A stretch of DNA of 57,437 nt from Candidatus Thalassarchaeaceae archaeon (GCA_963578705.1 CAUZDT010000002.1:1-57437); one strand, 5' to 3'; shown: positions 23,412 through 55,385, counted from the first letter of the stretch. Made by a program: numbers and translations. Notes: generated by a model not told the origin, from the sequence alone.

Positions 23412-23608
23412 ATGACGAGCCCGGTCATCTGCGCCGAGGTACCGGGTAACCGTACCGACGTGCTGCACCTGATGATCAGGCATCACACCTCGGGAGTCCC
23501 GGTCGTCAGAGAGGGGACTATGGACAGGTCCCACTGGTTGACGCTGGGGGGAAGCTGACTGGGATGATTTACTGCCAGGACCTCCTGAAGGTGCTCCTGT
23601 CGGCATGA
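23412..23608 (+). pseudogene. single CBS-domain gene split over two frames (frameshift, assembly error or recoding)
   Basis: Frame from ATG 23412 reads MTSPVICAEVPGNRTDVLHLMIRHHTSGVPVVREGT... and stops at TGA 23556. The -1 frame reads ...VPLVDAGGKLTGMIYCQDLLKVLLSA*, ending at TGA 23606-23608, which overlaps the glyS ATG. That second frame has no start of its own. The switch must lie between the G4 run (23513-16) and the G6 run (23546-51). Confidence 0.6.
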
Positions 23609-25194
23609 ACTTCAGGGAGGTGATGGCGCTCGCCAAGCGGCGAGGAATCTTCCAGCCCGCCTACGAACCCTATGGTGGCGTTGCCGGGCTGCTCGATTAT
23701 GGCCCCATAGGGGTGCGGATACGCCGCAAAATTCTCGAGCTCTGGCGCCAGCAGTTCGTAATCGAAACCAGTGCGCTCGAGTTGGAGGGTGCTACTATTG
23801 GCCCGGAAGCACTTTTCCAGGCGTCGGGCCATCTTTCAGAGTTTGATGACCTGCTGGTAGAATGCAAGGAGTGTAAGAAACTGCACCGGGCGGACCATCT
23901 TGTCGAAGGTGGCGACACTCTCGATAAAGAGGCTCTCATCGCCGAAGTTGCAAATATTGTATGTGGATGCGGCGGCGCACTAGGCACACCCCGCCCTTTC
24001 AACCTGATGTTCGCAACCTCGATTGGTGCCGGGCGCGGCACGGTTGGATACCTGCGACCGGAAACTGCGCAGGGCATCTTCCAGGCTTTCCCATGGCTCC
24101 TGCGCCAGAACCGGGGGAAACTGCCGCTCGCGGCGGCGCAAATCGGCCGCGCATTCCGCAATGAAATCGCCCCGCGTCAGGGGCCGTTACGATTGCGGGA
24201 GTTCACCCAGATGGAGGTGGAATCGTTCTTCCTACTGGGCGCTGAACCGGCTTTGTCGGCAGGCATTGGTGAGGTGGTGGTTTCGCTACTACCTGCTGGT
24301 GGTGATGTTGTTGAAGCTCCCGCCAGCGAGGCGCTCGCGAGGGGGATTATTGCATCACCCCAGGTAGCCACGTGGCTGGCGCGTAGCTGCAGATTCATCC
24401 TTGCTTGTGGGGTACCTCCTGCGAAGCTCAGGTTCCGGCAGCACAACCAGTACGAGATGGCGCACTACTCATCAGATTGCTGGGATGGAGAGGTGGAAAC
24501 TTCTGTAGGGTGGGTTGAGGTAGTCGGAATCGCGCATCGCGGTGACTACGACCTCAGGGCACACACAGCCGCCAGCGGCCGCGAGATGCGCGTTCCTGTG
24601 GATGGAGAGTCGCGGCAAGTCGAGCGTTGGGTTCCGAACAAAGGGGCCATCGGTAAGAAATTCAAGTCTGTGGCTGGTGATGTGCTGGAACAACTGGATG
24701 ATTCTGCTGCGCCTGGAGTGTTGGTTGAGGTCACTGGAAAGAAAATCGAACTGGGCGAAGATTGTTTCACGCAAGAAACAACAACCGAGCAGGAAATGGC
24801 TTTCCCGCAAGTGGTCGAGCCTTCGTTCGGACTGGACCGTTTACTCTATGTTGTGCTGGAAACCACATGGCAGTCTGAAGGTGAACGAGGTTGGTTGGCT
24901 CTACCGGAAGCGATCGGTCCCTACTCTGCACTCGTCGCCCCATTGATGGTAAAGGACGGTATGGGGGATCGAGCTGAGGAAATATGCACAGAGCTGCACC
25001 AGAATGGAATGGATGTTTATCTCGATGTAGCTGGCTCCATCGGCCGCCGCTATGCACGCGCCGATGAGATCGGCGTGCCGCTGGCGATAACAGTAGACCA
25101 CCAGACGCTGGAAGATGGAAGCATTACCGTGCGCGAGCGCGACACAACCAGACAAGAACGGAAGCGCATTGAAGACGGTTGGCCCGTAACGTGA
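23605..25194 (+). CDS. glyS: glycyl-tRNA synthetase (archaeal/eukaryotic-type class II)
   Basis: 529 aa. ...YGGVAGLLDYGPIG...YLRPETAQGIFQAF...GRAFRNEIAPRQGPLRLREFTQMEVESF... Confidence 0.9.
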   Translation: MNFREVMALAKRRGIFQPAYEPYGGVAGLLDYGPIGVRIRRKILELWRQQFVIETSALELEGATIGPEALFQASGHLSEFDDLLVECKECKKLHRADHLVEGGDTLDKEALIAEVANIVCGCGGALGTPRPFNLMFATSIGAGRGTVGYLRPETAQGIFQAFPWLLRQNRGKLPLAAAQIGRAFRNEIAPRQGPLRLREFTQMEVESFFLLGAEPALSAGIGEVVVSLLPAGGDVVEAPASEALARGIIASPQVATWLARSCRFILACGVPPAKLRFRQHNQYEMAHYSSDCWDGEVETSVGWVEVVGIAHRGDYDLRAHTAASGREMRVPVDGESRQVERWVPNKGAIGKKFKSVAGDVLEQLDDSAAPGVLVEVTGKKIELGEDCFTQETTTEQEMAFPQVVEPSFGLDRLLYVVLETTWQSEGERGWLALPEAIGPYSALVAPLMVKDGMGDRAEEICTELHQNGMDVYLDVAGSIGRRYARADEIGVPLAITVDHQTLEDGSITVRERDTTRQERKRIEDGWPVT

Positions 25195-25280
25195 CGCTGC
25201 AGTCTTCTGGCCGCGAGCGGGGCTTTGGCCCGGCGGATAGAAAAGAATTTGAGCGGGAACGCGTGCGGTTTTCTGGCCGG

Positions 25281-25304
25281 GGCCCCCTCTGTTTCCTCTG
25301 GAAC
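25281..25304 (-). promoter_or_regulatory. ORB-like origin recognition box (left copy)
   Basis: Minus-strand reading is 5'-GTTCCAGAGGAAACAGAGGGGGCC-3', i.e. dyad TTCCA-N3-GGAAA, a 4-nt spacer, then a G-string. The alternative reading is a glyS terminator hairpin (GTTTCC-tct-GGAAC) followed by oligo-T. Confidence 0.4.
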
Positions 25305-25374
25305 TTTTATTTTTTGTTCGACGGGCTGTTATAATATTCTTTTCCTCAATAAAGATATAAATTAAAAGAAAATA
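25305..25374. other. AT-rich ~70-bp core (candidate DNA unwinding element; its 5' part, ttttatttttt, is also an oligo-T terminator for glyS)
   Basis: ttttattttttgttcgacgggctgttataatattcttttcctcaataaagatataaattaaaagaaaata is by far the most AT-rich stretch in this part of a high-GC window. It is bracketed by inverted ORB-like boxes. Confidence 0.4.
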
Positions 25375-25396
25375 TTTCCACTCGAAATCAAGGGGT
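25375..25396 (+). promoter_or_regulatory. ORB-like origin recognition box (right copy, inverted relative to left)
   Basis: 5'-TTTCCACTCGAAATCAAGGGGT-3' shares TTCCA-N3-GAAA-N3-A-GGGG with the left box at identical spacing (15 of 22 positions identical). Confidence 0.35.
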
Positions 25397-25420
25397 CTCC
25401 CTAGTCTTTCCTACGTTTGT

Positions 25421-25470
25421 CTTTATTGTGCCCATGGTCTCTTTGGTGTTGGTTTTATTGTTGAATGGCG
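25421..25470 (+). repeat. G/T-rich arm of an imperfect long inverted repeat
   Basis: ...TTTATTgtgcccATGGtctctttgGTGTTGGTTttaTTGTTGAatgg. The core at 25445-25464 matches the reverse complement of 25753-25773 (GTGTTGGTTgtgggTTGTTGA). Confidence 0.5.
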
Positions 25471-25748
25471 CTTCGCCGCGTTCAGTCTTACTGTCTTGTC
25501 CCTCGGCGGCAATACCCCGGCCTTCGATGCCCGGCGCTCCATTAATCCCTCCTCGATCGGTTTTGCAATCTAGAACGGGAGCAACCGGCCGCGGCAACGC
25601 CCGCCCTAGCTCATCAACGTTCGTGATGGCGGTTTTCCCCATTTCGACCAAAGCCAGGCAACGCTCGGTAGCGCGGGTGGTCTGGGGGAACCTCTGTCAC
25701 GGCACCCTATTGGTGGGTAATACGTCAGCTTTGGCCACCAACCACATC

Positions 25749-25877: not shown

Positions 25878-26960
25878 ATGCCTCAATCCGCGATCGGGCA
25901 ACTGGAACAGATTGCCGGCCAGATCCACAAGCAACTTAACCAAGGAAACATCCCCGAGATGAACCTCCCGACCCGCAGCAAAAACAATATAATCTTCGAC
26001 CAGCAGCAACAGGTCTGGAAGTATGGGAAAGCGAGGACGACCCGCACGGCCAAGAAACTGGACGGGGCGTACATGCTGCTACGCACGACCTACTTGCTCG
26101 ACTTCATCCGCGACATGGTTGGCCAGCAGAAATCCTCGACTCTCAGGGAGCTCTACTACATCTCTGAAGGGTGGGACCTTGGCAAGTTCCAGTCACAGGA
26201 TGAATCCAACAAACTCATCGAGGACCTCGAGATTGTCACCAATTTCCAGCGCGAGGATTTCAAGATTCGGCCCGAGGAGGATGGCGCCAAGGTGCTGGGC
26301 AACCTCACACTCACAGAGATTAACCGCAAGGGCAAGCCGATGCGCATCAACTGCCGCGACGATGTTGGAGATACCGGCTACGCAATTCCCTACAATGTCG
26401 AGCCGGAGAAGATTACCTTCAATAGCGCAGGTAACGCGCGCTGCATCATTGCCATTGAGACGGGGGGGATGTTCGACCGACTGGTCGAGAATGGCTTCGA
26501 CGAAAGCCATGGCGCAATCCTGGTCCACATCAAGGGGCAACCCGCCCGCTCGACGCGCAGGTTCCTGCAGCGGCTCAGTGATGAGACCAGCCTGCCGCTC
26601 TTGATCTTTACCGACGCCGACCCGTGGTCGTACCGGATTTACGGCTCGATTGCGTATGGGGCGATCAAGACCGCCCATATTTCGCACCTACTGGCGACCC
26701 CCTCAGCGCGCTACCTTGGGGTGACCCCGTCAGATATTACGAACTATGACTTGCCGCACGACGAGCTCACCGAGCGCGACCGGCAGGCGCTGAAATCTAT
26801 GCGCAGCGACCCCCGTTTCCTCAATGATTACTGGAGCTCGGAAATAGAGCTCCAGTTGGAACTGGGGCTCAAGGCTGAGCAGCAGGCGCTGGCCAAGTAT
26901 GGCCTCGACTTCGTGACCGACACGTACTTGCCGGAGAAGTTAGCTGAAGCAGGTCTTTGA
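25878..26960 (+). CDS. top6A: DNA topoisomerase VI subunit A (Spo11 family)
   Basis: 360 aa. ...STLRELYYISEGW... (catalytic Tyr region) and Toprim IAIETGGMFDRL...LLIFTDADPWSYRIY. Confidence 0.9.
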   Translation: MPQSAIGQLEQIAGQIHKQLNQGNIPEMNLPTRSKNNIIFDQQQQVWKYGKARTTRTAKKLDGAYMLLRTTYLLDFIRDMVGQQKSSTLRELYYISEGWDLGKFQSQDESNKLIEDLEIVTNFQREDFKIRPEEDGAKVLGNLTLTEINRKGKPMRINCRDDVGDTGYAIPYNVEPEKITFNSAGNARCIIAIETGGMFDRLVENGFDESHGAILVHIKGQPARSTRRFLQRLSDETSLPLLIFTDADPWSYRIYGSIAYGAIKTAHISHLLATPSARYLGVTPSDITNYDLPHDELTERDRQALKSMRSDPRFLNDYWSSEIELQLELGLKAEQQALAKYGLDFVTDTYLPEKLAEAGL

Positions 26961-26964
26961 GGCC

Positions 26965-27108
26965 TTAGTTTCCTAGGATGCGGTACATGCCGGTGCTGCA
27001 GGTAGGGCAGGTGCCCTTCATTGCCTTACGGCCGTTCTTCATGGTAATCTGGGCACCGTTGGACATGGTTCGCTTGGACTTGCATTTGACACAATAGGCT
27101 TCTGTCAT
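26965..27108 (-). CDS. small zinc-ribbon protein (DUF5679-like)
   Basis: 47 aa, below the track cutoff. MTEAYCVKCKSKRTMSNGAQITMKNGRKAMKGTCPTCSTGMYRILGN has CxxC...CxxC. A TATA (tataaa, 27131-36) lies ~25 nt upstream of the ATG. Confidence 0.6.
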   Translation of the reverse strand: MTEAYCVKCKSKRTMSNGAQITMKNGRKAMKGTCPTCSTGMYRILGN

Positions 27109-30661: not shown

Positions 30662-31019
30662 CCTACGTTTCCCGCCCGCGGACGAGACGCATTACGTCTA
30701 CGACAAGGAGGCGGTCGGCGAAGGCTCGCGCTACGGCGAGTCGACGGTCGGCAACGTGGAGGAGCGCACCTGTCGTGGCTGCGGCCAGCGCTTCAACTGG
30801 GCCTTCAAGGTCGGCAATGCGATGACCGATTCGACGCCGGACGGCGTCGCGCACGCGGTCGACAACGGTGCCAGCCGGGGCTACTGCTCAATTGAGTGCT
30901 TCATGGCGGGAGATTCCGACCTCGAGCAGGCGACGCTCGACCGCGACTCCGCCGGAATTTGGGCGCTGGCGAAGCGCAACTGGTTTGGGTTGAAAGTGCT
31001 GCGCGGGCTGGGCCGTTAG
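30642..31019 (+). CDS. hypothetical Cys-containing (possible zinc-ribbon) protein
   Basis: 125 aa with CRGCGQRF...CSIEC. 20-nt overlap with the upstream gene. Its stop overlaps the radA stop. No family recognised. Confidence 0.35.
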   Translation: MTTTNFDLRFPPADETHYVYDKEAVGEGSRYGESTVGNVEERTCRGCGQRFNWAFKVGNAMTDSTPDGVAHAVDNGASRGYCSIECFMAGDSDLEQATLDRDSAGIWALAKRNWFGLKVLRGLGR

Positions 31020-31966
31020 TCGCGGATCCCGTCTTCCAGGATCTGGACTACCGCTTCCCCGTCGGGCAGGTGTGGTGAATCGACGAGCCGGAAGATGCGC
31101 TTCCCCGCCTTGCCGCGCCGGATATAGATCCTGAATTTTGAGGTGTGGCCGACGATGTGGCCGCCAATTGGCCTGGTCGGGTCGCCGAAAGCGAAACCGT
31201 CCGGTTTGGAGAGCACCTGATTAGTGACTGCCACTGCAGCGTTATGCTCGTCTGCGAATTTAGTTAGGGCCTCCATATGACTGCCGATTTTGCCCTGTCG
31301 TTCGGCTAGCATGCCGCGGCCGATATACTCCGACCGGAACGCGCCGGTCAGTGAGTCGACCGCCAGTAGCCGGATTGGCCGCTCCTCGGCCAGTTGCTTG
31401 ACTTTATCGACCATCAGCATCTGCTGGTGCGAGTTGTAGGCGCGGCCGACGTGGATGCGAGCCAGCACCTCATCGGGGTCCAGGTCCAGGGCTTTGGCCA
31501 TCGAGATGATGCGTTCGGGGCGGAAGGTATTCTCGGTATCGATAATCGCTGCTTCCCCATTCAGGCCCCCCTGCTCCTCCGGCAGCTGTACGGTCACTGC
31601 CAGCTGGTGGATAATCTGCGTTTTACCCGAACCGTATTGTCCATAGAATTCGGTGATTAACTGCGTCTCGACGCCGCCGCCGAGCAGCGCGTCCAGCTCG
31701 CTGGAGCAGCTGGTCAGCTTGCCTACAGTCTGCCGTTTCTCGAGCAGTTCAGCCCCCGTCAGGATTCCACCAATATCGACCATACCGATTGCGGCATGGA
31801 TGATCTCAGCGCACTTAGAATTACCAACACCAGCAGCCTCGCTCAGGCGCGAGGGCGATTGAGTCGCAATCGATTCGAGGGTACGGTATCCTGCACCTCG
31901 TAGTTTATCGCCGATGGTGGGGCCGACCCCGGGGAGGTCCTCGATTGATTCTTCTTTCTTGCCCAT
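31016..31966 (-). CDS. radA: DNA repair and recombination protein RadA
   Basis: 316 aa from ATG 31966 (TTG 31969 is possible). HhH region LPGVGPTIGDKLRGAGY, Walker A GQYGSGKTQ, Walker B LLAVDSL. Confidence 0.93.
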   Translation of the reverse strand: MGKKEESIEDLPGVGPTIGDKLRGAGYRTLESIATQSPSRLSEAAGVGNSKCAEIIHAAIGMVDIGGILTGAELLEKRQTVGKLTSCSSELDALLGGGVETQLITEFYGQYGSGKTQIIHQLAVTVQLPEEQGGLNGEAAIIDTENTFRPERIISMAKALDLDPDEVLARIHVGRAYNSHQQMLMVDKVKQLAEERPIRLLAVDSLTGAFRSEYIGRGMLAERQGKIGSHMEALTKFADEHNAAVAVTNQVLSKPDGFAFGDPTRPIGGHIVGHTSKFRIYIRRGKAGKRIFRLVDSPHLPDGEAVVQILEDGIRD

Positions 31967-32088
31967 CAACGCCTCCGGGGGACGGTTGCCAGTGGTAGTT
32001 CGACTTCCCGCAGCCAGTCAAACTCGCGAGGGTCTTCCCAGCGCGGGGCGATAGCCTTGAGGAACTCGCGTACAGACTTGCTTGGCAT
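31966..32088 (-). CDS. 40-aa micro-ORF translationally coupled to both the rpa2-like gene and radA
   Basis: MPSKSVREFLKAIAPRWEDPREFDWLREVELPLATVPRRR. Its ATG overlaps the upstream stop (TGATG) and its TGA overlaps the radA ATG (TGATG). It exactly fills the 118-bp gap. Confidence 0.4.
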   Translation of the reverse strand: MPSKSVREFLKAIAPRWEDPREFDWLREVELPLATVPRRR

Positions 32089-33050
32089 CATGCTACCCGG
32101 AATTTGTTGAACGCTGGCTGGTAGGTCAGCCCCTGGTCGTTGAGCGAGTCGATGACCTCGTCGAGGCGCGAGCCGTCGATGCCGGCTGCCGCTGCGGAAT
32201 CGCGCAGCGTCTCGTAGATTACGCCTTCTCCGTCGCCTTCCTTGTCGAGTGAGCCTATGAGCTCGAGCACGGCCGCCTCGGCGTCCGCGTCGCCTTCCGG
32301 TTCCCCGTCAGGCGCTGCGGCAGGCGTTTCATCGCCTGCGTGGGTGTCCTGCTCCGCTATGGACGCAGGCGGTTCCGGTGCCACCGGAGCCGCTTCCGTC
32401 TCGGCCGCTTCCACATCGCTGGCGGTCTCGAACTCGCCGGTGAACTGCGCCGTGCTCGGCGCAGTCGTGTCGCCGCTGAGATTCCGCAGGCAGTCGTAGA
32501 GCAGTCCGGCGTAGGATTCGGTCGATACCGTCTCGTATTTTTCCTGCGCCAGGCCAAGCCCTTCTTTTTCGCGGTTGCTCAGCTCGGCATCGTCGCCCTT
32601 CAGGCGGCGCATCAGTGATTCGCACGCCTTGATGGCCCAGACTGAGACTTCCTGCTCGCTGACCGCGCGCACGTTCTCGGGCTGGACGCTGACGTAGACC
32701 GAGTCGCTGTCGTCAGGTGAATAGGCACGCACCCTCCCGACGGAGATTACGTGCGTGGGCGTCTCGATTTTGGAGAGCGCCGCAGCGCCTTCGGGATTGT
32801 ACTGCCCGGCGCGCAGGTAGTAGGTGTCGCCGTGTGGGTCAACCATGCGCGCCATGTAGAACGGATCCGTCTCGCTGCCGCGGTTCTCGACATCGGTCAG
32901 GATACCGCCGATGAGCACGCGCGAGAGTTTGGAGCCCATCTCCGAAATCAGGTAGGTGGGCGAATACTCACGGTCCTCGACATGCGTCTCGTGGGCGCGC
33001 GAAAGCTCCTGCGCCAGTACCGGAAGGGCCGGCTCCCTGCGACGCGCCAT
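32088..33050 (-). CDS. RPA32-like / RPA-associated OB-fold protein with acidic linker and C-terminal winged-helix
   Basis: 320 aa. OB-like N-half (...VLIGGILTDVENRGSETDPFYMARMVDPHGDTYYLRAGQY...), then an Ala/Glu/Pro acidic linker, then C-terminal ...VIYETLRDSAAAAGIDGSRLDEVIDSLNDQGLTYQP... Its start abuts the rpa1 stop. Confidence 0.65.
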   Translation of the reverse strand: MARRREPALPVLAQELSRAHETHVEDREYSPTYLISEMGSKLSRVLIGGILTDVENRGSETDPFYMARMVDPHGDTYYLRAGQYNPEGAAALSKIETPTHVISVGRVRAYSPDDSDSVYVSVQPENVRAVSEQEVSVWAIKACESLMRRLKGDDAELSNREKEGLGLAQEKYETVSTESYAGLLYDCLRNLSGDTTAPSTAQFTGEFETASDVEAAETEAAPVAPEPPASIAEQDTHAGDETPAAAPDGEPEGDADAEAAVLELIGSLDKEGDGEGVIYETLRDSAAAAGIDGSRLDEVIDSLNDQGLTYQPAFNKFRVA

Positions 33051-34385
33051 TCAGGCCTCCAGCGCCGCCAGGAATTGCCTAGCGACAGAGGGCACGTCAA
33101 GATTGTGTGCCGGCTGGCACTTGCGCGCGAAGAACATCAGACCGTAGTCGTCGGAGCGGGTGTACCCCTCCACCGTCAGTGGCTTGAGCAGAAGCGCCTG
33201 TTCCAGCTCTTCGGTCAGCGACTCAGCCGAGTAGTTCTCGCGTACCAGTTCGAGGCACGAATCAAGGTCGCGCCCCAACACCTTCTCGGTCAGCTCTCGG
33301 TTCAGGAATAGCTGTAGCGAACCGGTGCCGTCATCGAAGAGTAGCTTGGTCCGCAGGTCGGGCTGCCCCTCCTGCTCGCCGTGTACCATGCACTGCCGGC
33401 TGCGGAGCATGCGGTTGCACTCAGGGCAGCGGAAAATCAGTCCGCTGCCCTCGCGCACTGCCAGCACGTGCCCCTCCAGGAGCGCGTCGCTAGCGCCACC
33501 GCGCTCGTCGAGCAGGTCGATAGTGTAGCTGGTCCCCACCGCCAGTTCTTCCAGCGATGGGAGTTCGGCGTCGACCGTGCTTACTGCGGTGTTTTCGTTG
33601 ATTTGCAGCTCGGGGATGCCCTGCCACTCGCGCACGTAGGCGTTGCCGATTTCGTAGATGGTATCTGCCTGTAGTTTGTGGTCGTGCCAGGCGGTGAAGC
33701 GGCAGCTACCGCTGGCGTCTGCCAGCGTCCCGCTCCAGAGCGCTTTCGGCTCGGTGCGTACGGTCACCTCGCGCTCCTGCACATCCAAGATGCGCACGGT
33801 CAGCGTGACCGAGCCCATGCCGTCCCGTAGTCCCGCAACGTCGCTCGCGGAGCCGGCGGTCGGACTGTCGGCCGCCGGCACATCCAGCGCCGCCAGAGCC
33901 TCGTCTTCGACCTCCCGCACCCGGCAGCGGTCGCCCAGATTCAGGTCGACGCGATCTTTCCAGCCTTTGGAATAGGCGTTAGTGACCTCGAGGATAGTCC
34001 CCGGCACGGCCGTGAACTCGTCACGCCAGACGGTGAAGCGCAGGGTAGCGCTGCCGTCGGCGATTTGACCCTCGAAAATGGTCTTCTGCGAGCCATCTTT
34101 CAGGTTGATTTCCTTCGAGAACACAGACACGATCTTCGCGCGGAAGCTGATCGATGACTCGTCTGCTTTGATGTCAGCCAGCGGCATGAATGCGCTGGCC
34201 TGCAACGTGCGGGGGTCGCCGTAGTGCTTCCGGACAATCGCCTCTTTGGCGGTTGCCAGATCGATGCCGTAGTTCTCCACGTATTGCCTCAGTTCTTCGA
34301 CAATCGTGGCTTCGTCCAGTTTGTTTTCCAGGGCCTCTGCAATGTCCTTGACATGCGGGCCAAAGTCGGTTTCGTTTGCTTGCAT
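33051..34385 (-). CDS. replication factor A large subunit (multi-OB with zinc finger)
   Basis: ORF 33051..34439 trimmed to ATG 34385, which has AAGGAG 7 nt upstream. Repeated OB blocks are present (...GQIADGSATLRFTVWRDEF..., ...GTLADASGSCRFTAWHDHK...), plus CPECNRMLRSRQCMVHG. Confidence 0.8.
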   Translation of the reverse strand: MQANETDFGPHVKDIAEALENKLDEATIVEELRQYVENYGIDLATAKEAIVRKHYGDPRTLQASAFMPLADIKADESSISFRAKIVSVFSKEINLKDGSQKTIFEGQIADGSATLRFTVWRDEFTAVPGTILEVTNAYSKGWKDRVDLNLGDRCRVREVEDEALAALDVPAADSPTAGSASDVAGLRDGMGSVTLTVRILDVQEREVTVRTEPKALWSGTLADASGSCRFTAWHDHKLQADTIYEIGNAYVREWQGIPELQINENTAVSTVDAELPSLEELAVGTSYTIDLLDERGGASDALLEGHVLAVREGSGLIFRCPECNRMLRSRQCMVHGEQEGQPDLRTKLLFDDGTGSLQLFLNRELTEKVLGRDLDSCLELVRENYSAESLTEELEQALLLKPLTVEGYTRSDDYGLMFFARKCQPAHNLDVPSVARQFLAALEA

Positions 34386-34557
34386 GGAGTATCTCCTTTG
34401 TTTATGCCCCAGGACTCCACTCCGGGACAACCCATACACCCTACTAGGGGTTATAAACTTAATGGTGATTATGTTGATTACCCTTTTTAGGTATTATACT
34501 ATATGGGGGAAAGGATGCATCTCAACCGTTATATGGAGGCCAGTCTCGGCGCAGCCG

Positions 34558-35596: not shown

Positions 35597-37429
35597 GTGC
35601 GGCCGGTCCTGATGGCCAGCGACGACGAGGCTGCAGACGCCGACGCTCCTGATGAGGGGCAGCCGCCGACAGGACCGCTGCGCCAGCCCATCGTGGCAGT
35701 GCTGGGGCACGTCGACCACGGCAAGACGTCGCTGCTCGACTGGGTGCGCGGTACCGCGGTCGTAAGCCGCGAGGCGGGCGCGATTACGCAGCACATCGGC
35801 GCGACCGAGGTGCCATTCGAGACTATCAGCGACATCTGCGGCGCGCTGTTGCCGGAGGAGAACATCCGGCTCCCCGGGCTGCTCTTCATCGACACCCCCG
35901 GCCACCACTCCTTCAGCACTCTGCGCGCGCGTGGGGGACAGCTGGCGGACTTAGCGGTGCTGCTCGTCGACATCATGGAGGGGTTCAAGCCGCAGACCAT
36001 CGAGTCGCTGCAGGTGCTACGGCGGGCGCAGACGCCCTTTATCCTGGTGCTGAACAAGATTGACCGGCTCCCCGGCTGGCGCACTCGCAAGGGCACTTTC
36101 GCCGCCAACCGGCAGGAGCAGTCGCAGCTGGCGCAGGATGCGCTGCAGGAGCGCATCTGGGAGATTGTGCGTGAACTGGGCGGACACAACTTCGATTCGG
36201 CGCTCTACTCCGAGGTCGAGGATTTCCAGAAGACGATTGCGCTGGTGCCCACGTCGGTCCGCGACAGCGGCGAAGGCGTCCCTGAGCTGTTTATGCTGCT
36301 GATGGGGCTGGCGCAACGCTATCTCGAGGGGCGACTGGCGCAGAAGGAGGGCGTAGCCGAGGGGACCGTGCTCGAGGTAAAGGAGGAGCGCGGGCTCGGC
36401 AAGACGCTTGGCGTCATAATCTACAACGGTGTCCTGCGCGCGAGCGACACGCTGGTCATCGGCGCGACGCCCGAGCCGCTGGTAACGCGCGTGCGCAGCC
36501 TGCTGCAGCCGCGGCCGCTGGACGAAATTCGCGACCCGCGCCAGCAGTTCAACGTGGTCACGGAGGTCGCTGCCGCCGCCGGCCTGAAGGTGGTCGCGCC
36601 TGATCTTGAGGGCGTCATCGCCGGCGCGCCCTTCTACGGAGTCCCGCAAGGCGACGATATCGCGCCAGTGCTGGAACGGCTTTCGGGGGAGATGGAGAGC
36701 AACGTCGCGCTCGAGGACCGCGGGTTGGTGGTGCGCGCCGACGCCATCGGCTCGCTCGAGGCGCTCGCCTACGAACTGCAGGAAGCTGGGGCCCCGATAA
36801 TGCGCGCCGCCGTCGGCGACGTCTCGCGCCGCGACGTGCGGCTGGCTGAGACCGCGCCGGCCGAGCAGCGCGCGGTGCTGGCGTTCGGCGTCAACGTGCT
36901 GCCCGACGCGCGCGAAGCACTGGTCGAGAGCGAAGCGAAGCTCTTCGAGGCGGACGTGGTCTACCAGCTGGTCGAGGAATACGGCGAGTGGCTGCTGGAG
37001 CTGAAGCGCGAGCAGGCACGGGCGTTGCGCGAGGAATTCCCGCACCCGGGCAAAATCGAGTTTCTGGAAGGGCACACCTTCCGCACGCGTGACCCCGCCG
37101 TCTTCGGCGTGCGAGTGCTGGCGGGGCGCATCATGGTGGGTCAGAAAGTGCTGCGAGCGGACAACCGCGTTATCGGCCGCATCCGCTCGATGCGCTCCGG
37201 GGAGCAAGGCCTGAAGGAGGCGACACAGGGCGACGAAGTCGCGATTGCCGTGACCGAGGCGACCGTCGGCCGGCAGGTAAACGAGGGCGATATTCTTTAT
37301 ATAGAGATGGTTGAGCGCGACGTGGTGCGTCTGCGCGACGAAAACGTCAAGCTGACGCCCGACGAGGAAGACGTTATCACCGAGTTACAGCGCATCAAGA
37401 AGGCGGATTCCCCGTTCTGGGGGCGTTGA
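35597..37429 (+). CDS. infB: translation initiation factor aIF5B (IF-2 family GTPase)
   Basis: 610 aa (GTG 35597; ATG 35612 is the alternative). G motifs VLGHVDHGKTSLLD, DTPGH, NKID. Confidence 0.92.
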   Translation: MRPVLMASDDEAADADAPDEGQPPTGPLRQPIVAVLGHVDHGKTSLLDWVRGTAVVSREAGAITQHIGATEVPFETISDICGALLPEENIRLPGLLFIDTPGHHSFSTLRARGGQLADLAVLLVDIMEGFKPQTIESLQVLRRAQTPFILVLNKIDRLPGWRTRKGTFAANRQEQSQLAQDALQERIWEIVRELGGHNFDSALYSEVEDFQKTIALVPTSVRDSGEGVPELFMLLMGLAQRYLEGRLAQKEGVAEGTVLEVKEERGLGKTLGVIIYNGVLRASDTLVIGATPEPLVTRVRSLLQPRPLDEIRDPRQQFNVVTEVAAAAGLKVVAPDLEGVIAGAPFYGVPQGDDIAPVLERLSGEMESNVALEDRGLVVRADAIGSLEALAYELQEAGAPIMRAAVGDVSRRDVRLAETAPAEQRAVLAFGVNVLPDAREALVESEAKLFEADVVYQLVEEYGEWLLELKREQARALREEFPHPGKIEFLEGHTFRTRDPAVFGVRVLAGRIMVGQKVLRADNRVIGRIRSMRSGEQGLKEATQGDEVAIAVTEATVGRQVNEGDILYIEMVERDVVRLRDENVKLTPDEEDVITELQRIKKADSPFWGR

Positions 37430-39230
37430 ACCCTCGTACCAGTGCCGGCACCGCACTGCTGGTGCAGTGCCGCACCTCTTTCGGCAGGAAGCGGCGGTAG
37501 GGGCGGTGCCCCAGCCGGTTGTCGTAGAGCAGCACCACGCCGCGGTCGGTCTCGCTGCGGATGCAGCGGCCGGCCGCCTGTAGCACGCGGTTGACCGCCG
37601 GGTAGGTTTGCGCGTAGAGACGCCCCTTTCCGTCGCCGAATTTTCGCTCGAAATACTCTTCGAGCTTCTTCTGCTCGAGCGATGGCGGCGGCACCGGTAT
37701 CCCGACGACGGCGACCGCGGCGAGCAGGTTGCCGGGATAGTCGACCCCCTCACCGAAGATGCCCCCCATCACCGCTAGCAGCAGCGCGTCGCGCTGCTGC
37801 AAGCGTCCGAGCAGCGCCGTCCGCTTTACCGGAGATGCACCGCGCTCCTCGAGCAACAGCGCCTTGCCATGCTCGCCGAGCCGGCTGGCGACGTCGTCGC
37901 GCAGCGCGTAGCTCGGGAAGAACGCAGCGACGTTGCCCGGCGTCGCTTGCGCCACCGCGGTCAGCGACGCCGCCAGCTTGCGGTAGAGCGGGTCGCCGCG
38001 ATTACGGAAGAGGGTCGAGACGTCGTCGATGCAGAGCAGCAGCCGGTTCTCGGGCGGGAAGGGCGAGCTGTAGGTCGCCTTGCGGGAGCGCTCCGCGTCG
38101 AGCCCCAGCAGGTCGCGGTAGAATCCGCGCGGCTTCAGCGTGCCCGACATCAGTACCGAGCCGCGCACGGCGCGGAAGACCGGCGCGCTGATTGACGCGG
38201 GGTCGAGCAGCCGCAGCGAGAGTTTGCGTTGCCACGGCTTGTCGCCGCCGTGCGCCAGCCGCAGGTCGCTGCCTTCCTTCAGGAAGCGCCAGTGGTGCAG
38301 GAAATCCGCCACATCGCCCATGCGCGCCACCTTGCCGCGCTGCAGCCGCCGCTGGGCGGACCGCTCGAGCAGTCGCACGAAGCCCTCCAGGTCGGTCAGC
38401 TTCTGCTTCAGCGCCGCGTCGAGCATGCGGCTGACGCTGCCGCCGTCAATCTCCTTCTCGCCCTTGTGGTCGGTCAGGCTCTCGACCAGCCGCTCCAGGA
38501 TTGAGAGCTGCGTGCGCAGCGCCTGGCCCGCCTCGCGCTGCGCCTCGCGGATACGCTGCAGCGAGAGCGTCGGCGACGCGGAGAGCCGGATGCGGTCGGG
38601 CAGGTTGTGTGCCTCGTCGACAATCAGCAGCACCTCCTCCAGCGGCCGCTGGATGCGGTCCCACACCACGTCGGACCACGGGGTGAAGAGGTAGTTGTAG
38701 TCGCAGACCAGCACGTCGCATTCCTGCGCCGCTTCCAGCGCGACACGGTGCGGGCACTGCACCTCCTCGCGACAGAGCGCCTTCAGACCGGCCGCCGAGA
38801 GCGGCTCGTCGAAGACCTGCGGCAGGAATTCGGGGCGGTAGCCAGCATGGTAGCTACAGTCGTTGTTGCGCACCAGTGCGGTGCAGACTGCCTGGAAGAC
38901 GCCGTAGCGGCTCTCGTCCAAATCGTCGCGAGGGCACATGTCCTGCTTGGAAATCACGTCCACGATTTTCAGCGGCTGTTGCGCGTGGATGCGCTTCAGC
39001 GTCTCGACGAAAATCGCGTGCTGCGTCTGCCGTGACGTCAGCGCCACCACCAGCAACCCTCGCTCGCGCGCCACCTCGACCGCGGCGGTCAGCGCCGCGG
39101 CGGTCTTCCCCAGCCCAGTGGGCGCGTGCGCCAGCAGGTGCTCGCCGGCAGCGAACGCAGCGCGGCAGCCATCCAGCATCGCATCTTGCCCCTTGCGGAG
39201 CTCCGGGAACGGGAACAAGGAGTGCCCCAC
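37395..39230 (-). CDS. XPD/Rad3-family 5'-3' DNA helicase (FeS-cluster helicase)
   Basis: 611 aa, GTG start. Walker A AHAPTGLGKTAA and DEAH box IVDEAHNL. Four Cys are spaced as in the XPD FeS domain (DMCP...AVCT...NDCSYH...VQCPH). The 3' end overlaps infB by 35 nt (convergent). Confidence 0.8.
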   Translation of the reverse strand: MGHSLFPFPELRKGQDAMLDGCRAAFAAGEHLLAHAPTGLGKTAAALTAAVEVARERGLLVVALTSRQTQHAIFVETLKRIHAQQPLKIVDVISKQDMCPRDDLDESRYGVFQAVCTALVRNNDCSYHAGYRPEFLPQVFDEPLSAAGLKALCREEVQCPHRVALEAAQECDVLVCDYNYLFTPWSDVVWDRIQRPLEEVLLIVDEAHNLPDRIRLSASPTLSLQRIREAQREAGQALRTQLSILERLVESLTDHKGEKEIDGGSVSRMLDAALKQKLTDLEGFVRLLERSAQRRLQRGKVARMGDVADFLHHWRFLKEGSDLRLAHGGDKPWQRKLSLRLLDPASISAPVFRAVRGSVLMSGTLKPRGFYRDLLGLDAERSRKATYSSPFPPENRLLLCIDDVSTLFRNRGDPLYRKLAASLTAVAQATPGNVAAFFPSYALRDDVASRLGEHGKALLLEERGASPVKRTALLGRLQQRDALLLAVMGGIFGEGVDYPGNLLAAVAVVGIPVPPPSLEQKKLEEYFERKFGDGKGRLYAQTYPAVNRVLQAAGRCIRSETDRGVVLLYDNRLGHRPYRRFLPKEVRHCTSSAVPALVRGFNAPRTGNPPS

Positions 39231-41805: not shown

Positions 41806-42567
41806 TCAGGCGACGCGGGTAATCATCTCGGGCGTAATACCGTGCTCAGTGACGGCGTAGATTAGCACCGCTGCCTTCTCCGGGTGGTTACGGATCTTCT
41901 TGAGAATCATGCGATTCTCGAACTCGGCCGCCATGCGCCCTACTTCGAGCTCGATAATGACGTCGGCGACAGCCTCAATCTGGCTCTGCGTCTTCGAATC
42001 GTGCGCGTCCTGCGAGACGGTGTAGAGCACGAGGCCGCCGTTAGCTTGCGCGTATTCCTTGATGGTCCGCATTGACGAGAGTACCTCAGCCAGCGAGTAA
42101 TACTGCAGGAAGAAATCGAGTGAATCAACGACGACCCGGAAGGGTGAGCGCAGCTTCGAGATTTCGTACGCCATGTCTGAGACGAAGTTAATCTGGTCAG
42201 CGGTCGCACCGTAGGCGCCGACGTTGCGCAGCTCGCTTACCGAAAGCCCCTCCTGCTTGAAGCGGGAGGCCTGCAGGTCGCGCGCCAGAACCTTCTCGAA
42301 ATACTGGGTGCCGATGTTGACAATCCGCATGTCAGTGGGCCAGTTGTAGTGCTCGAAAGTCTCAATCAGCTCCTCGGAGGTTTCGTCGGTCGAGAAATAG
42401 ACGACATTCTCGGCGCCGACACCCGCTGCGGCGTACTGCTTGGCGAGCAGCTCCTTGCCCGCCCCGGAGGTGCCCGCAATCAGGATTGAGCTCCCCATCT
42501 TGAACCCCTTGCCTTCTATCAACGCCGCGTCGAGGCGGGGAATGCCGCAGGTTACGATTTCAGCCAT
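41806..42567 (-). CDS. KaiC/RecA-superfamily ATPase (single domain), paralog 3
   Basis: 253 aa. GIPRLDAALIEGKGFKMGSSILIAGTSGAGKE (Walker A) and RVVVDSLDFF (Walker B). 8-nt overlap with the upstream gene. Confidence 0.75.
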   Translation of the reverse strand: MAEIVTCGIPRLDAALIEGKGFKMGSSILIAGTSGAGKELLAKQYAAAGVGAENVVYFSTDETSEELIETFEHYNWPTDMRIVNIGTQYFEKVLARDLQASRFKQEGLSVSELRNVGAYGATADQINFVSDMAYEISKLRSPFRVVVDSLDFFLQYYSLAEVLSSMRTIKEYAQANGGLVLYTVSQDAHDSKTQSQIEAVADVIIELEVGRMAAEFENRMILKKIRNHPEKAAVLIYAVTEHGITPEMITRVA

Positions 42568-43117
42568 CTGTGTTTTCGATGTAGCGGTCGGTCAGGGTCT
42601 TCAGCATTGAGGCCAGGTCGTCACTGGTCTGCTCCTCCACCGTAATCATCATGGTATACGACTTGCGGAGCCGCATGGTGTTGGCGAGGACGTTAATAAA
42701 TTCCTTCAGGACCCGGTTCTCGGAATAAATGGTGAGGCCGTTAACCGAGTCAAACATTACGAAGTGCCGCTTGGCCTTGATGCGCCGCTCGAGCAACCCG
42801 ATATTGAGCAGCACCGACTCGAGCATCGTGGGCGACTCGATGAACATGGTACGTGGGTCCTCAGTCTCGCCACCAACAGTGAGCGAAATCATATCCACGA
42901 AATAGAGGTCGCCTAGGTCAGCCTTGATTTTTTCGAGGTCGGTGATGATACTACCCGAGGGCCGGGTCGTGGTGATGTAGATGCCACCCAGCTTTTTGCT
43001 CAGCAGGTGCTTTACGATTTCAGTCGACGTGGGGCGATAATTGTCAGAGTTGAGTGCAAGCGTCGTCAGGGCATCGCCCTCCTTGATGCTTGCGACCACT
43101 TGCTTGAGGATGCTCAC
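42560..43117 (-). CDS. degenerate KaiC-like domain protein lacking a P-loop, paralog 2
   Basis: ORF 42560..43147 trimmed to GTG 43117 (GTGA junction). LGGIYITTTRPSGS sits where Walker A is expected. The Walker-B-like HFVMFDSVNGL is retained. Confidence 0.5.
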   Translation of the reverse strand: MSILKQVVASIKEGDALTTLALNSDNYRPTSTEIVKHLLSKKLGGIYITTTRPSGSIITDLEKIKADLGDLYFVDMISLTVGGETEDPRTMFIESPTMLESVLLNIGLLERRIKAKRHFVMFDSVNGLTIYSENRVLKEFINVLANTMRLRKSYTMMITVEEQTSDDLASMLKTLTDRYIENTDG

Positions 43118-43929
43118 GTGAACACCTGCCCCGTGTCCTGTCCCCACTTGAGCAACGGCACGATACTGAGCCCGATCGGCGTCAGCTCCACCAGCTGTCG
43201 CGAGCGCGAGTGCTTGGCACCCCGCATCTTGACCACTTGCAGCGTGCGTAGCAGGTCCCCCTGCCGCTGGACGTTCCCCATCAGGATAACTCCGTCAGCG
43301 ACCGCTTCTTCAACGCCGAAGATGGAGTAGGTCTGCGTACGCGCGTCGACGACAGTCTCGGAGATGAGCATGGTGGTACAACCGAAGGTGGCCAGGAACT
43401 GCCCCAGCCGGAAAATGAAGTTACGGATAGCTCCCTTGTCGGGGAGTTGATAGCAGATAGCGGTAATCGAGTCAATCACCAGTCGCGTAATTTGGAGTTC
43501 GTCGACGATATCCTCGAACGCCCCCAGCAGTGCCTCCATGTCCTTGGAGGTGTAGGAGCCATCGAGCCGCTCGACTCCCAGTCGGTCGTTGATAATCCCA
43601 AGGTCGAAGACATTCAGCTTCCCCTCGGTGACCAGCGAATCTTCGAAAAACCCGTAAGTTCGCAGGTTCTCTAGCATCTTGGAGGAGGGCTCGGTAACCG
43701 AGATGTAACAGGTGGTCTCACCTTGCTTGGCTCCATTAATCAGGTACTCCATCGCCAGCGTGGTCTTTCCCGAGCCGACGGTGCCTGCCAGCAGGGTAGT
43801 GTTACCGATGGGGATGCCGCCGTTGAGGATGCGGTCCAGCCCCTCAATGTGGGTCATGGACTTCTCGCGCGGCCGGCCGCCGCGGGGGTCCAGCATCACC
43901 CTCTTCGGTTTTACGTTTTCTTCCGCCAT
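43114..43929 (-). CDS. KaiC/RecA-superfamily ATPase (single domain), paralog 1
   Basis: ORF 43114..44070 trimmed to ATG 43929, giving 271 aa. IEGLDRILNGGIPIGNTTLLAGTVGSGKTTLA, RLVIDSITA, ...LQVVKMRGAKH... Confidence 0.78.
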   Translation of the reverse strand: MAEENVKPKRVMLDPRGGRPREKSMTHIEGLDRILNGGIPIGNTTLLAGTVGSGKTTLAMEYLINGAKQGETTCYISVTEPSSKMLENLRTYGFFEDSLVTEGKLNVFDLGIINDRLGVERLDGSYTSKDMEALLGAFEDIVDELQITRLVIDSITAICYQLPDKGAIRNFIFRLGQFLATFGCTTMLISETVVDARTQTYSIFGVEEAVADGVILMGNVQRQGDLLRTLQVVKMRGAKHSRSRQLVELTPIGLSIVPLLKWGQDTGQVFT

Positions 43930-43931
43930 GA

Positions 43932-44357
43932 TTATTCCTCGATAAGGTACTGGTCGATAAGGTACTGGCGGACCCGCTTTTTCAACGTTCTCTCGGTAAT
44001 CCCTTCTTCCTGAGCAGTGTCGTGGACATTCTGTAGTTCTCGCTGCACTTCCACCGGGAGCTCGGCCCACTCGACCGGAGGCTTCTTCGGCAGCAGCCCG
44101 CGCAGGTCAACCGGGTTGGCGTCGGCGAAGACCGAGGCGAAGCGCTCGCGCACGCGGTCCTCGAAGTATTTTTCGGCTTCCCGTTCGCACTCGTTGTAGG
44201 TATTGACCAGCTGTTCCTCGATGACCGGCCCCAGATCCTCCATGAAGACTCCTTCGGGCAGGAAATGGTGGTACCAGCTGCCATCCTCGTGCAGCACATC
44301 CAGATGCGTGCGGTTGTACGCGTCAATCAGCGGCGTCTCGTATTCTTCCTTTGCCAT
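43932..44357 (-). CDS. hypothetical acidic protein, first gene of the KaiC-like operon
   Basis: 141 aa. Its stop lies 2 nt before the next ATG. A TATA-like catatatag lies ~35 nt upstream. The C-terminus QYLIDQYLIEE is encoded by a 15-bp tandem duplication (43940-43969). No family recognised. Confidence 0.5.
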   Translation of the reverse strand: MAKEEYETPLIDAYNRTHLDVLHEDGSWYHHFLPEGVFMEDLGPVIEEQLVNTYNECEREAEKYFEDRVRERFASVFADANPVDLRGLLPKKPPVEWAELPVEVQRELQNVHDTAQEEGITERTLKKRVRQYLIDQYLIEE

Positions 44358-47918: not shown

Positions 47919-48636
47919 TCACGTGACCCTGCCCCCGGAAGACCACCCGAGATACAAATCCCTCATGGCCCGTGAGAAGTTGGTAGAAGCTGCTGATGCC
48001 GTCGCCAGGCAGGGGTTGATTGCCCATGGGAGAGGCGAGGCGTTCGATTATCTGTTAGGCGAACAAACATGTCCACCTGCGGTGGATGCAATCAGGGCCG
48101 CCTCATCTATGATGGTTGGTGCCACCAATCCAGTTATTTCGGTCAACGGGAATGTTGTTGCTCTGGCAGCCAGAGAAGTTGCACATCTTTCCGAGGTAAG
48201 TGGCGCCAAAGTCGAAATAAACCTGTTCCACCGAACTCCGGAACGGGTTGCAGCCTTGACCAGGATGATGGGTGATGCCGGGGTAAAGGCACTAGGGGAG
48301 AATGCTGATGCTAATATTCCTGGATTAACATCGGAAAGAGCAAAATGCTGCTCAGACGGAATAGGTTCGGCTGACGTCGTTCTTGTTCCACTTGAGGATG
48401 GAGCCCGTTGCCGAGCTCTGGTAGATATGGGAAAGCAGGTGATTACTATTGATCTAAACCCTCTTTCAAGAACAGCTCAAACTGCCCATGTCACAATAGT
48501 TGACGAACTGACACGGTGTCTGCCACTACTGACCGAGTCTGTCCGTGTCGGGGCTGTGGTCGAGGATTTTGATAACGAAAAAAATCTGCAAAAGGTAATT
48601 GACTTTATTTCTGATAGGCTTTCAAGAACGGAATAG
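47899..48636 (+). CDS. archaeal phosphopantothenate synthetase (4-phosphopantoate--beta-alanine ligase)
   Basis: ORF 47842.. trimmed to ATG 47899 (GTG 47923 is possible). ...HPRYKSLMAREKL...HGRGEAFDYLLGE...VISVNGNVVAL...EINLFHR...VVLVPLEDG...ITIDLNPLSRT... Confidence 0.72.
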   Translation: MSLSGTSHVTLPPEDHPRYKSLMAREKLVEAADAVARQGLIAHGRGEAFDYLLGEQTCPPAVDAIRAASSMMVGATNPVISVNGNVVALAAREVAHLSEVSGAKVEINLFHRTPERVAALTRMMGDAGVKALGENADANIPGLTSERAKCCSDGIGSADVVLVPLEDGARCRALVDMGKQVITIDLNPLSRTAQTAHVTIVDELTRCLPLLTESVRVGAVVEDFDNEKNLQKVIDFISDRLSRTE

Positions 48637-52921: not shown

Positions 52922-53007
52922 GCCAGGATCGCCTAGTCCGGTAGGGCGGTGGTCTCGAAAACCACTGGGGTCTCCCCACGGGGGTTCAAATCCCTCTCCT
53001 GGCGCCA
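52922..53007 (+). tRNA. tRNA-Ser (anticodon CGA), long variable arm, CCA encoded
   Basis: GCCAGGAUCGCCUAGUCCGGUAGGGCGGUGGUCUCGAAAACCACUGGGGUCUCCCCACGGGGGUUCAAAUCCCUCUCCUGGCGCCA. Acceptor stem is GCCAGGA/UCCUGGC. Anticodon stem is GUGGU/ACCAC with loop CUCGAAA. The variable arm is UGGGGUCUCCCCACG. A TATA-like cttaatgcttatca lies ~28 nt upstream. Confidence 0.9.
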
Positions 53008-53009
53008 TG

Positions 53010-53711
53010 TTACTGGGTTGATGGTGATTTGACCAGAGCCGGGAACGTCTCATTCAGGATTTGTTTGTACTCCACCCTGTCTCCCATAGCTTTCGCGCGC
53101 TTTGCAGCTTCATTCAGATCCCGTTGCCGAGTATGGTCATCTGCCTCAGGGAGAGGCTCCCTAGCTTTAATTTCGCTTTCTGGCAGGAGATAAAAAGCCC
53201 CTCCATCAACACGTAACATCGCGTTTCGGCTATAATCGTAAATTCTGGAATCACCCGTAATGTTGCCCTCAGCGGCCTGCTTCACATAGATGTGCAAACT
53301 GAAGGAATTCCTATCTCCTGGGTTCCCCATCTGATGAATCAATGCTGGCGTCACTTCCAGCGTTGTTCCCGCTTCAATGATAGCACGCCCGAGAGTGATA
53401 AGTTTCTGATTAACTATTTCGAACGCGGCGTGTTCGGTATCTCCAAAGACCTTGACCACGCCAAACTCAGCTTCCCCATGATCGTGTATGGCACTATAAT
53501 CTCCGGGTTTCCAGCACATAACCATCACTTCGAAAAAACCACCATCATGCACCATTTTTCGACCATATGAATCAGAGACAGGATAGTCGTAATCTATCCA
53601 TTTCACAAGGTCCTTGAACCCCACAGTAGATTTTGAAACAGCCTCATAGACGCCTTCTAGCGTGAATTCACTCAAGCCCTCAAGGGAGTCTATCAGACTT
53701 TCCAGAGTCAT
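53010..53711 (-). CDS. cupin-fold thiol dioxygenase-like protein (cysteine dioxygenase type I family)
   Basis: ORF to 53723 trimmed to ATG 53711. ...FEVMVMCWKPGDYSAIHDHGEAEFGVVKVFGD...LIHQMGNP... Low GC. The stop lies 2 nt after the tRNA-Ser CCA. Confidence 0.6.
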   Translation of the reverse strand: MTLESLIDSLEGLSEFTLEGVYEAVSKSTVGFKDLVKWIDYDYPVSDSYGRKMVHDGGFFEVMVMCWKPGDYSAIHDHGEAEFGVVKVFGDTEHAAFEIVNQKLITLGRAIIEAGTTLEVTPALIHQMGNPGDRNSFSLHIYVKQAAEGNITGDSRIYDYSRNAMLRVDGGAFYLLPESEIKAREPLPEADDHTRQRDLNEAAKRAKAMGDRVEYKQILNETFPALVKSPSTQ

Positions 53712-53789
53712 CCTCCAACGCAAGCCACAGAGGTTTTTAAAAGTTTCAAGAGTAATAGTGAGTTTTGGCTGGAATGTAAAGGGCGTTTA

Positions 53790-55358: not shown

Positions 55359-55385
55359 GTCAGTTCTCGATTTGACGACCAATAT

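Follow-up and report, generated by a model that had tools for sequence, protein, structure and literature searches.

The two inverted, ORB-like boxes that lie between glyS and top6A raise the question of whether a chromosomal replication origin can be recognised in a region that carries no initiator gene. We addressed this question in the window, by which we mean the whole 57,437-bp stretch of DNA analysed, and in related genomic and metagenomic loci. The answer that we favour is that the element is probably an Orc1/Cdc6-type origin of chromosome replication with a minimal, two-box ORB-DUE-ORB layout, a prediction in which we place good, though not full, confidence. The window can be assigned to an archaeon of Marine Group III (MGIII; Poseidoniia, Thermoplasmatota), an uncultured, globally distributed order of planktonic archaea for which we know of no described replication origin. 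Its Top6A protein was 97% identical to that of L001, 88-89% identical to those of L002-L004 and 72-80% identical to those of the MGIII bins CG-Epi1 and CG-Bathy1.

Table 1. Position, strand and supporting evidence of the predicted element and of its neighbouring genes in the window.
Feature	Coordinates	Strand	Evidence or description
glyS, glycyl-tRNA synthetase, left neighbour	23605..25194	+	Pfam HGTP_anticodon and tRNA-synt_2b
ORB-L, left origin recognition box (predicted)	25281..25304	-	Sequence read and exact motif match
AT-rich core, presumed duplex unwinding element	25305..25374	.	70 bp, 79% A+T
ORB-R, right origin recognition box (predicted)	25375..25396	+	Sequence read and exact motif match
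Truncated PPS (phosphopantothenate synthetase) remnant, 3' third	25391..25666	-	tblastn to L117
top6A, topoisomerase VI subunit A, right neighbour	25878..26960	+	Pfam TOP6A-Spo11_Toprim, Topo_VI_alpha and TP6A_N
radA	31016..31969	-	Pfam scan
Second supposed rpa	32088..33050		No detectable family
RPA/SSB-like OB-fold protein	33051..34439	-	
XPD	37395..39230	-	Pfam scan

The element sits in the 683-bp gap between glyS and top6A (Table 1). The left 20 kb of the window are occupied by a ribosomal-protein/secY/adk cluster, and the right side of the element carries genes for a DUF63 protein, a CARDB protein, RadA, an RPA/SSB-like protein, aIF5B/IF-2, XPD and KaiC-like ATPases. Among the replication and repair genes that the original prediction had named in this neighbourhood, top6A, radA, XPD and one RPA/SSB-like gene were recovered, while no family could be detected for the second supposed rpa. 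Both top6A and the PPS remnant are context only and form no part of the origin. Within the glyS-top6A gap, Rfam and ARAGORN found no RNA genes and the small ORFs matched no Pfam family; an 87-aa ORF in the spacer is a gene remnant.

Some other features of the neighbouring genes were also recorded. The subunit genes of topoisomerase VI are adjacent in most archaea; here, top6B was seen neither adjoining top6A nor among the window ORFs that were scanned, and downstream, top6A is followed on the opposite strand by a 47-aa DUF5679 zinc-ribbon ORF (26965-27108). Three consecutive genes for ATPases of the KaiC/RecA superfamily (253, 195 and 318 aa) lie in tandem at 41806-44070 on the minus strand. 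ARAGORN additionally called a tRNA-Ala(agc) at 37411-37494 on the minus strand; this call runs into the ends of the reading frames of aIF5B and XPD and is probably a false positive because the Rfam tRNA model failed to confirm it at the gathering threshold.

The two boxes read exactly as originally given in sequence, coordinates and strand. ORB-L is GTTCCAGAGGAAACAGAGGGGGCC on the minus strand and is built from a dyad (TTCC-aga-GGAA), a CAGA spacer and a G-string (GGGGG) that lies distal to the AT-rich core. ORB-R is TTTCCACTCGAAATCAAGGGGT on the plus strand, again with its G-string distal to the core, and its last 9 nt overlap the minus-strand stop codon of the truncated PPS remnant. The shared organisation claimed for them, TTCCA-N3-GAAA followed by a 4-nt spacer and a G-string, was present in full, since both boxes match TTCCA-N3-GAAA-N4-GGGG without exception. 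This motif was found twice in the 57,437-bp window, at 25284-25303 (minus strand) and 25376-25395 (plus strand), and not once in 100 dinucleotide-preserving shuffles of the window, a statistic that is after the fact because the motif was derived from the two boxes themselves. Allowing up to two mismatches added no further site in the window.

The boxes are inverted, with their TTCCA ends facing each other and their G-strings pointing outwards, and the DNA that they enclose is exceptional for this window. Specifically, the core was the most AT-rich stretch of 50, 70 and 100 bp in the whole window, which has 63% G+C, and also its least stable 70-mer, with a nearest-neighbour dG of -77.3 kcal/mol against a mean of -110.7 and a standard deviation of 7.9. 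This places it about 4 standard deviations above the mean of the 70-mers of the 57 kb. The description of inverted boxes around 70 bp of AT-rich DNA was thus accurate. Read on the plus strand, the left box runs into T-runs, and so does the right box when read on the minus strand.

Two small repeats were noticed beside the left box. At 25276-25289, a G-run abuts the C-run of this box and forms a small GGGG-N0-3-CCCC palindrome, which reads CCGGGGCCCCC in the window and is also found at the matching place in L002-L004, L106 and L146, that is, in several but not all MGIII lineages. In addition, the interval from the glyS stop codon to the left box contains a 16-nt direct repeat (TGCAGTCTTCTGGCCG and TGCGGTTTTCTGGCCG, at 25198-25213 and 25264-25279, 88% identical and 66 bp apart), which is not evidently conserved in L001.

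Conservation was assessed in relatives that had been fetched solely through Top6A homology and hence independently of the box motif. Six relatives carry the box pair adjoining glyS or at the corresponding place. In L001-L004, both boxes differ by at most one mismatch from the 13-position motif, lie 68-75 bp apart and are found just downstream of glyS wherever that gene was placed, with L002 having it one small gene beyond. In L008, L014 and L015, TTCCA-N3-GAAA is accompanied by a weakened G-string: the boxes of the low-G+C L014 and L015 (CG-Bathy1, 38% G+C) are TTCCACAGGAAAT.. and GTTCCAGTGGAAATGAAGGTCTC, with the L015 pair immediately after glyS, and those of L008 are TTCCACAGGAAACGAAGGTC and TTCCAGTGGAAACAAAGGTG. 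A further 11 metagenome contigs belong to MGIII and show the gene order glyS, box pair, PPS, top6A. Over the MGIII loci with flanking sequence, the distance from the 3' end of glyS to the pair is at most about 6-90 bp or amounts to a single small gene, and the number of boxes is exactly two in all MGIII loci.

When the seven loci that had been found independently of the motif were compared, the motif positions were 85% identical in the left box and 92% identical in the right box, against 36-39% in the flanks, 43% in the core and 48-61% at the N positions of the boxes; only TTTC..TGGA and TCCA..GAAA..GG.T were invariant in the alignments. The core behaves differently from the boxes, as its length (64-81 bp) and its A+T content (75-91%) are kept in the MGIII relatives measured, with the exception of L008 (56% A+T), despite a sequence identity of only 43-51%. 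This pattern reads as a phylogenetic footprint of two protein-binding sites with a constraint on base composition between them, and it points to purifying selection on the pair at the 3' end of glyS across MGIII lineages that range from 38% to 63% G+C. A separate match, TTCCAGTAGAAA, located about 490 bp upstream of top6A in CG-Epi1-type relatives (L005-L013), was rejected as a counterpart, as it lies inside a coding gene with no glyS nearby and as no box pair is present at that locus in these relatives.

The side of the element opposite glyS is fluid. Most relatives have an intact minus-strand PPS gene (PF02006) between the pair and top6A, while L015 has one extra gene there, L008 has several, and the window retains a truncated PPS. 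The remnant aligns with residues 130-237 of the L117 protein, which is intact, at 67% identity (tblastn, E = 9e-38); compared with L117, about 530 bp of the gene, including the 5' two-thirds, have been deleted. An intact PPS copy is located 22 kb away at 47935-48636 on the plus strand, beside tRNA-Glu; its third-position G+C content is 0.44 compared with about 0.83 for the genome, and its product is closer to the proteins of low-G+C MGIII (71%) than to those of nearer relatives (57-64%). It looks as though the native PPS was replaced by a horizontally acquired copy and the original then decayed. The left neighbour of the element also stands out, since GlyRS and its L001 counterpart share only 82% identity, against 97% for the adjacent Top6A, and the third-position G+C of glyS is unusually low (0.60); the history of glyS seems to differ from that of its surroundings through recombination or transfer. 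Elsewhere in the window, a low-G+C island at 53000-55400 (0.46 against 0.63-0.70) lies directly beside tRNA-Ser (52922-53007). On it are two genes with a third-position G+C of about 0.48, one cysteine-dioxygenase-like and one of the beta-lactamase family. This island is probably a horizontally acquired insertion.

A link to the initiator came from metagenomes. A collection was scanned with the pattern CCCC-N4-TTTC-N3-TGGA-N55-85-TCCA-N3-GAAA-N4-GGGG, which has 24 fixed bases and returned 83 loci where, by our estimate, far fewer than one was expected by chance. Over these loci, the free positions agreed as well, with T or C before TCCA and almost always T after GGGG, and the core was usually far more AT-rich than its contig. 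An orc1/cdc6 gene was carried by 20 of the 83 loci: in 13 it directly adjoined the pair (Cdc6_C, Cdc6_lid and AAA domains) and in 7 more it was located elsewhere in the locus. As orc1 accounts for about 0.1% of the genes of archaea, this frequency represents a very large enrichment, and one that was not built into the search. Furthermore, the pair was on the upstream side of orc1 in all 13 adjacent loci. One of these, L088, has the pair directly upstream of an Orc1 that matches the Sulfolobus Orc1-1 (2QBY_A, E = 3e-105) and Aeropyrum ORC1 (2V1U_A, E = 2e-93) proteins, both crystallised on origin DNA.

We then scored the window with a weight matrix built from 37 distinct orc1-linked boxes, whose own scores range from 19 to 38 bits. 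ORB-R reached 27.7 bits and ORB-L 26.5 bits, while the next best site in the window had 9.9 bits, and no site above 25 bits was found in 1.17 Mb of other Thermoplasmatota DNA outside the MGIII pairs. Both the metagenome pattern and the fixed positions of the matrix were seeded from the window boxes, so the agreement at those positions is circular; the independent evidence is the number of hits, the agreement at the free positions, the enrichment of orc1 and the relatives found through a protein. With this limit on the scores, the window boxes cannot be told apart by their sequence from boxes lying directly upstream of orc1/cdc6 elsewhere, in line with the reading of them as ORBs that had been proposed at first.

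The remaining pairs have other neighbours. No orc1 was seen in 63 of the 83 loci, and the gene lay within 2 kb in only 3 of the 23 loci that have 2 kb or more of sequence on each side. Other recurrent neighbours of the pairs were TyrRS (6 loci) and a 1449-aa protein (10 loci); another recurrent group (14 loci) combined an HTH-CBS protein and a 157-aa protein with either a class-III aminotransferase or a 536-aa ATPase. The latter, found next to some pairs without orc1, was considered as an Orc1 and rejected, being not detectably Orc1-like, and Pfam scans of the neighbours of other pairs without orc1 gave no taxonomic or functional clue. In about half of the metagenome loci outside MGIII, the pair is joined by a third box, 75-113 bp away on its outer side.

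The closest likeness is with the oriC1 of Aeropyrum pernix and that of Sulfolobus, which share with the window the dyad (T/C)TCCA-N3-GAAA, the 4-nt spacer and the G-string within about 22 bp, as well as the inversion of the boxes around an AT-rich unwinding element. If read as CTCCACAGGAAACGGAGGGGT, Aeropyrum ORB4 shares 17 of 21 positions with the left box. The two crenarchaeal origins lie next to the gene of their initiator and comprise three or four boxes, while the MGIII window, from a host in the Thermoplasmatota, has two boxes and no orc1/cdc6 within at least 25 kb. G-string ORBs inverted around an AT-rich stretch are likewise shared with the oriC1 of Halobacterium, Haloferax and Haloarcula and with the oriC of Pyrococcus, which adjoins cdc6 and polD. 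Among the metagenome loci, the high-G+C L152 and L163, each with a 510-aa Orc1, have the boxes ATCCAGAGGAAACAGAGGGGGA and CTCCACTCGAAACAACGGGGTT, which are nearly the window sequences, and a related group of pairs adjoins Orc1 and the PolD small subunit. None of the haloarchaeal origins mapped by experiment is known to lie away from an orc gene. The high-G+C loci of haloarchaeal kind have a core that is not AT-rich, unlike the glyS-linked candidate of the window with its strongly AT-rich core.

Archaeal origins without a linked orc1/cdc6 are known from Sulfolobus oriC3 (beside whiP) and Pyrobaculum calidifontis, and are predicted in Methanocaldococcus; they have in common with the window an origin apart from the initiator gene and thus an initiator supplied in trans. 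Sulfolobus oriC3 differs in its initiator, WhiP, and in its repeats, whereas the boxes of the window are ORBs of the canonical Orc1 type. The element very probably combines, as judged from its sequence, canonical Orc1-type boxes with an origin that is not linked to orc1. It departs from canonical long ORB origins in its minimal number of boxes and in its linkage to the 3' end of glyS instead of orc1, and a stable link to the end of an aminoacyl-tRNA synthetase gene is particular to MGIII; a TyrRS-linked pair was seen in another lineage.

If the element works as an origin, the steps can be proposed from the established origins of Sulfolobus, Aeropyrum and Pyrococcus. One Orc1/Cdc6 monomer would bind each box with a fixed polarity, placing its winged helix on the TTCCA..GAAA dyad and its AAA+ domain on the G-string. 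The two ATP-bound monomers, oppositely oriented, would deform the DNA by bending and underwinding it and would load MCM at the core, which would then melt, and two forks would leave in opposite directions. That there are only two boxes counts against an origin, many characterised origins having three or more. The initiator would have to be supplied in trans, because orc1/cdc6 is not within 25-32 kb on either side of the element. The mechanism itself is that of textbook archaeal origins, so its conceptual novelty is modest.

The absence of an initiator gene was established in several ways. No orc1/cdc6 was detected in the 57-kb window by Pfam analysis of the ORFs, by tblastn with 13 Orc1 proteins or by an Orc1 HMM run on six-frame ORFs, which confirmed what had been said of the window at the outset. 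Neither was the gene found within 10 kb of top6A in any relative, nor in about 3.5 kb recovered beyond the right end of the window, which encode a resolvase and proteins of unknown function; a look-up from the left end yielded nothing. The strand signals gave no help to the proposed origin. The skew check that the original prediction had named showed no inflection at 25.3 kb when run on the window, the cumulative GC-skew rising straight through the site, and the third-position GC-skew of the plus-strand genes did not switch there (-0.043 on the left and -0.038 on the right), although such a test has low power over only 57 kb. In addition, 34 of the 35 genes on the left, including the whole ribosomal-protein/secY operon, and 16 of the 25 genes on the right point towards the element. 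Genes thus run towards the site and not away from it, which is the opposite of the usual pattern at a dominant origin, and a leftward fork would meet the ribosomal-protein operon head-on. Many archaea show only weak skew and orientation bias. We regard these results as an absence of support together with a mild counter-indication.

These signals bear on the explanation that competes best with a working origin, namely that the boxes bind Orc1/Cdc6 but rarely or no longer fire, the element being a dormant or auxiliary origin or a site of chromosome organisation or regulation, with the main origin elsewhere. Dormant or dispensable origins that carry ORBs are known in Haloferax mediterranei and Thermococcus kodakarensis. 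The window lacks an origin signature in skew and gene orientation, the genes on both sides, the ribosomal-protein operon among them, point towards the element, and the initiator gene is not adjacent, all of which would fit this explanation. Against it stands the apparent purifying selection on the boxes, their inverted geometry and the AT-rich core from 38% to 63% G+C, because selection on boxes, geometry and core together is what a working origin predicts. A weaker argument in the same direction is that none of the metagenome hits from the samples that yielded the 11 MGIII pairs was an orc1-linked pair of the same architecture, although the spacing of such a pair could differ. Because skew and orientation lack the signature of an origin, we keep a silent or auxiliary role as an unlikely explanation that nevertheless deserves some weight.

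A bidirectional transcription terminator between the convergent glyS and PPS genes, with the boxes acting as hairpins followed by T-runs, appears improbable. The T-runs stand where such a terminator would have them, behind each of the two boxes, the element is the place where the genes on both sides end in relatives, and one weak consensus site was found at 25278-25291, where 1.5 were expected by chance. However, the RNA of the glyS 3' region folded worse than its shuffles (z = +1.55, with 189 of 200 shuffles at least as good), and the GTTTCC-tct-GGAAC stem, which had been named as a terminator hairpin after glyS and as the alternative to the boxes, was absent from the minimum-energy fold. No common hairpin was found in five orthologues either (z-scores of -1.5 to +1.4), and this alternative was accordingly abandoned. 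Most relatives retain only 3 bp of the dyad while TTCCA, GAAA and GGGG stay fixed, and the same boxes occur elsewhere upstream of orc1 genes rather than at gene ends. Moreover, archaeal termination needs only oligo-T, a requirement that gives no reason for 13 positions of a 20-bp box to stay conserved. The T-runs are another matter: those at the left end of the core probably also terminate glyS transcription, which may well be a secondary function of the element, and those at both edges may end transcription of the two convergent genes, which is compatible with an origin. A role as promoter or operator was also considered and is unlikely, because both flanking genes (glyS and PPS) end at the element in relatives, leaving the pair between two convergent gene ends.

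Finally, a chance inverted repeat, the terminal inverted repeats of a MITE or the origin of an integrated plasmid or virus could be imagined from an inverted repeat that flanks AT-rich DNA in a rearranged neighbourhood (PPS truncated with a copy elsewhere, glyS of atypical G+C), but we consider this highly improbable given that the pair is unique in the window, keeps one syntenic place across deeply diverged genomes, is conserved at motif positions rather than over whole arms, has no adjoining integrase or transposase, and that its architecture matched once in 2.9 million viral contigs.

Altogether, every sequence-level prediction of an origin that could be put to the test here held, while skew and gene orientation lent no support, and we retain the interpretation of the element as a probable two-box origin of the Orc1/Cdc6 type. 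A wider proposal, which we put forward tentatively and regard as possible rather than probable, is that the MGIII origin, possibly the sole one, is a two-box module permanently uncoupled from orc1 at glyS, and that most environmental ORB-DUE-ORB modules are not adjacent to orc1. If this were true, the rule of orc1 adjacency in archaeal origin prediction would miss many real origins. In the metagenome loci, whole lineages have the pair linked to housekeeping genes of another kind, that for TyrRS being one. More immediately, the element would be a well-supported case of an Orc1-type origin candidate that is not beside orc1, a point of relevance to tools whose search is confined to the surroundings of initiator genes. 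For Marine Group III itself, it may provide a fixed coordinate from which in-situ growth rates could be derived from metagenomic read depth (peak-to-trough ratios), as well as a defined 120-bp substrate for biochemistry with the Orc1 of these archaea.
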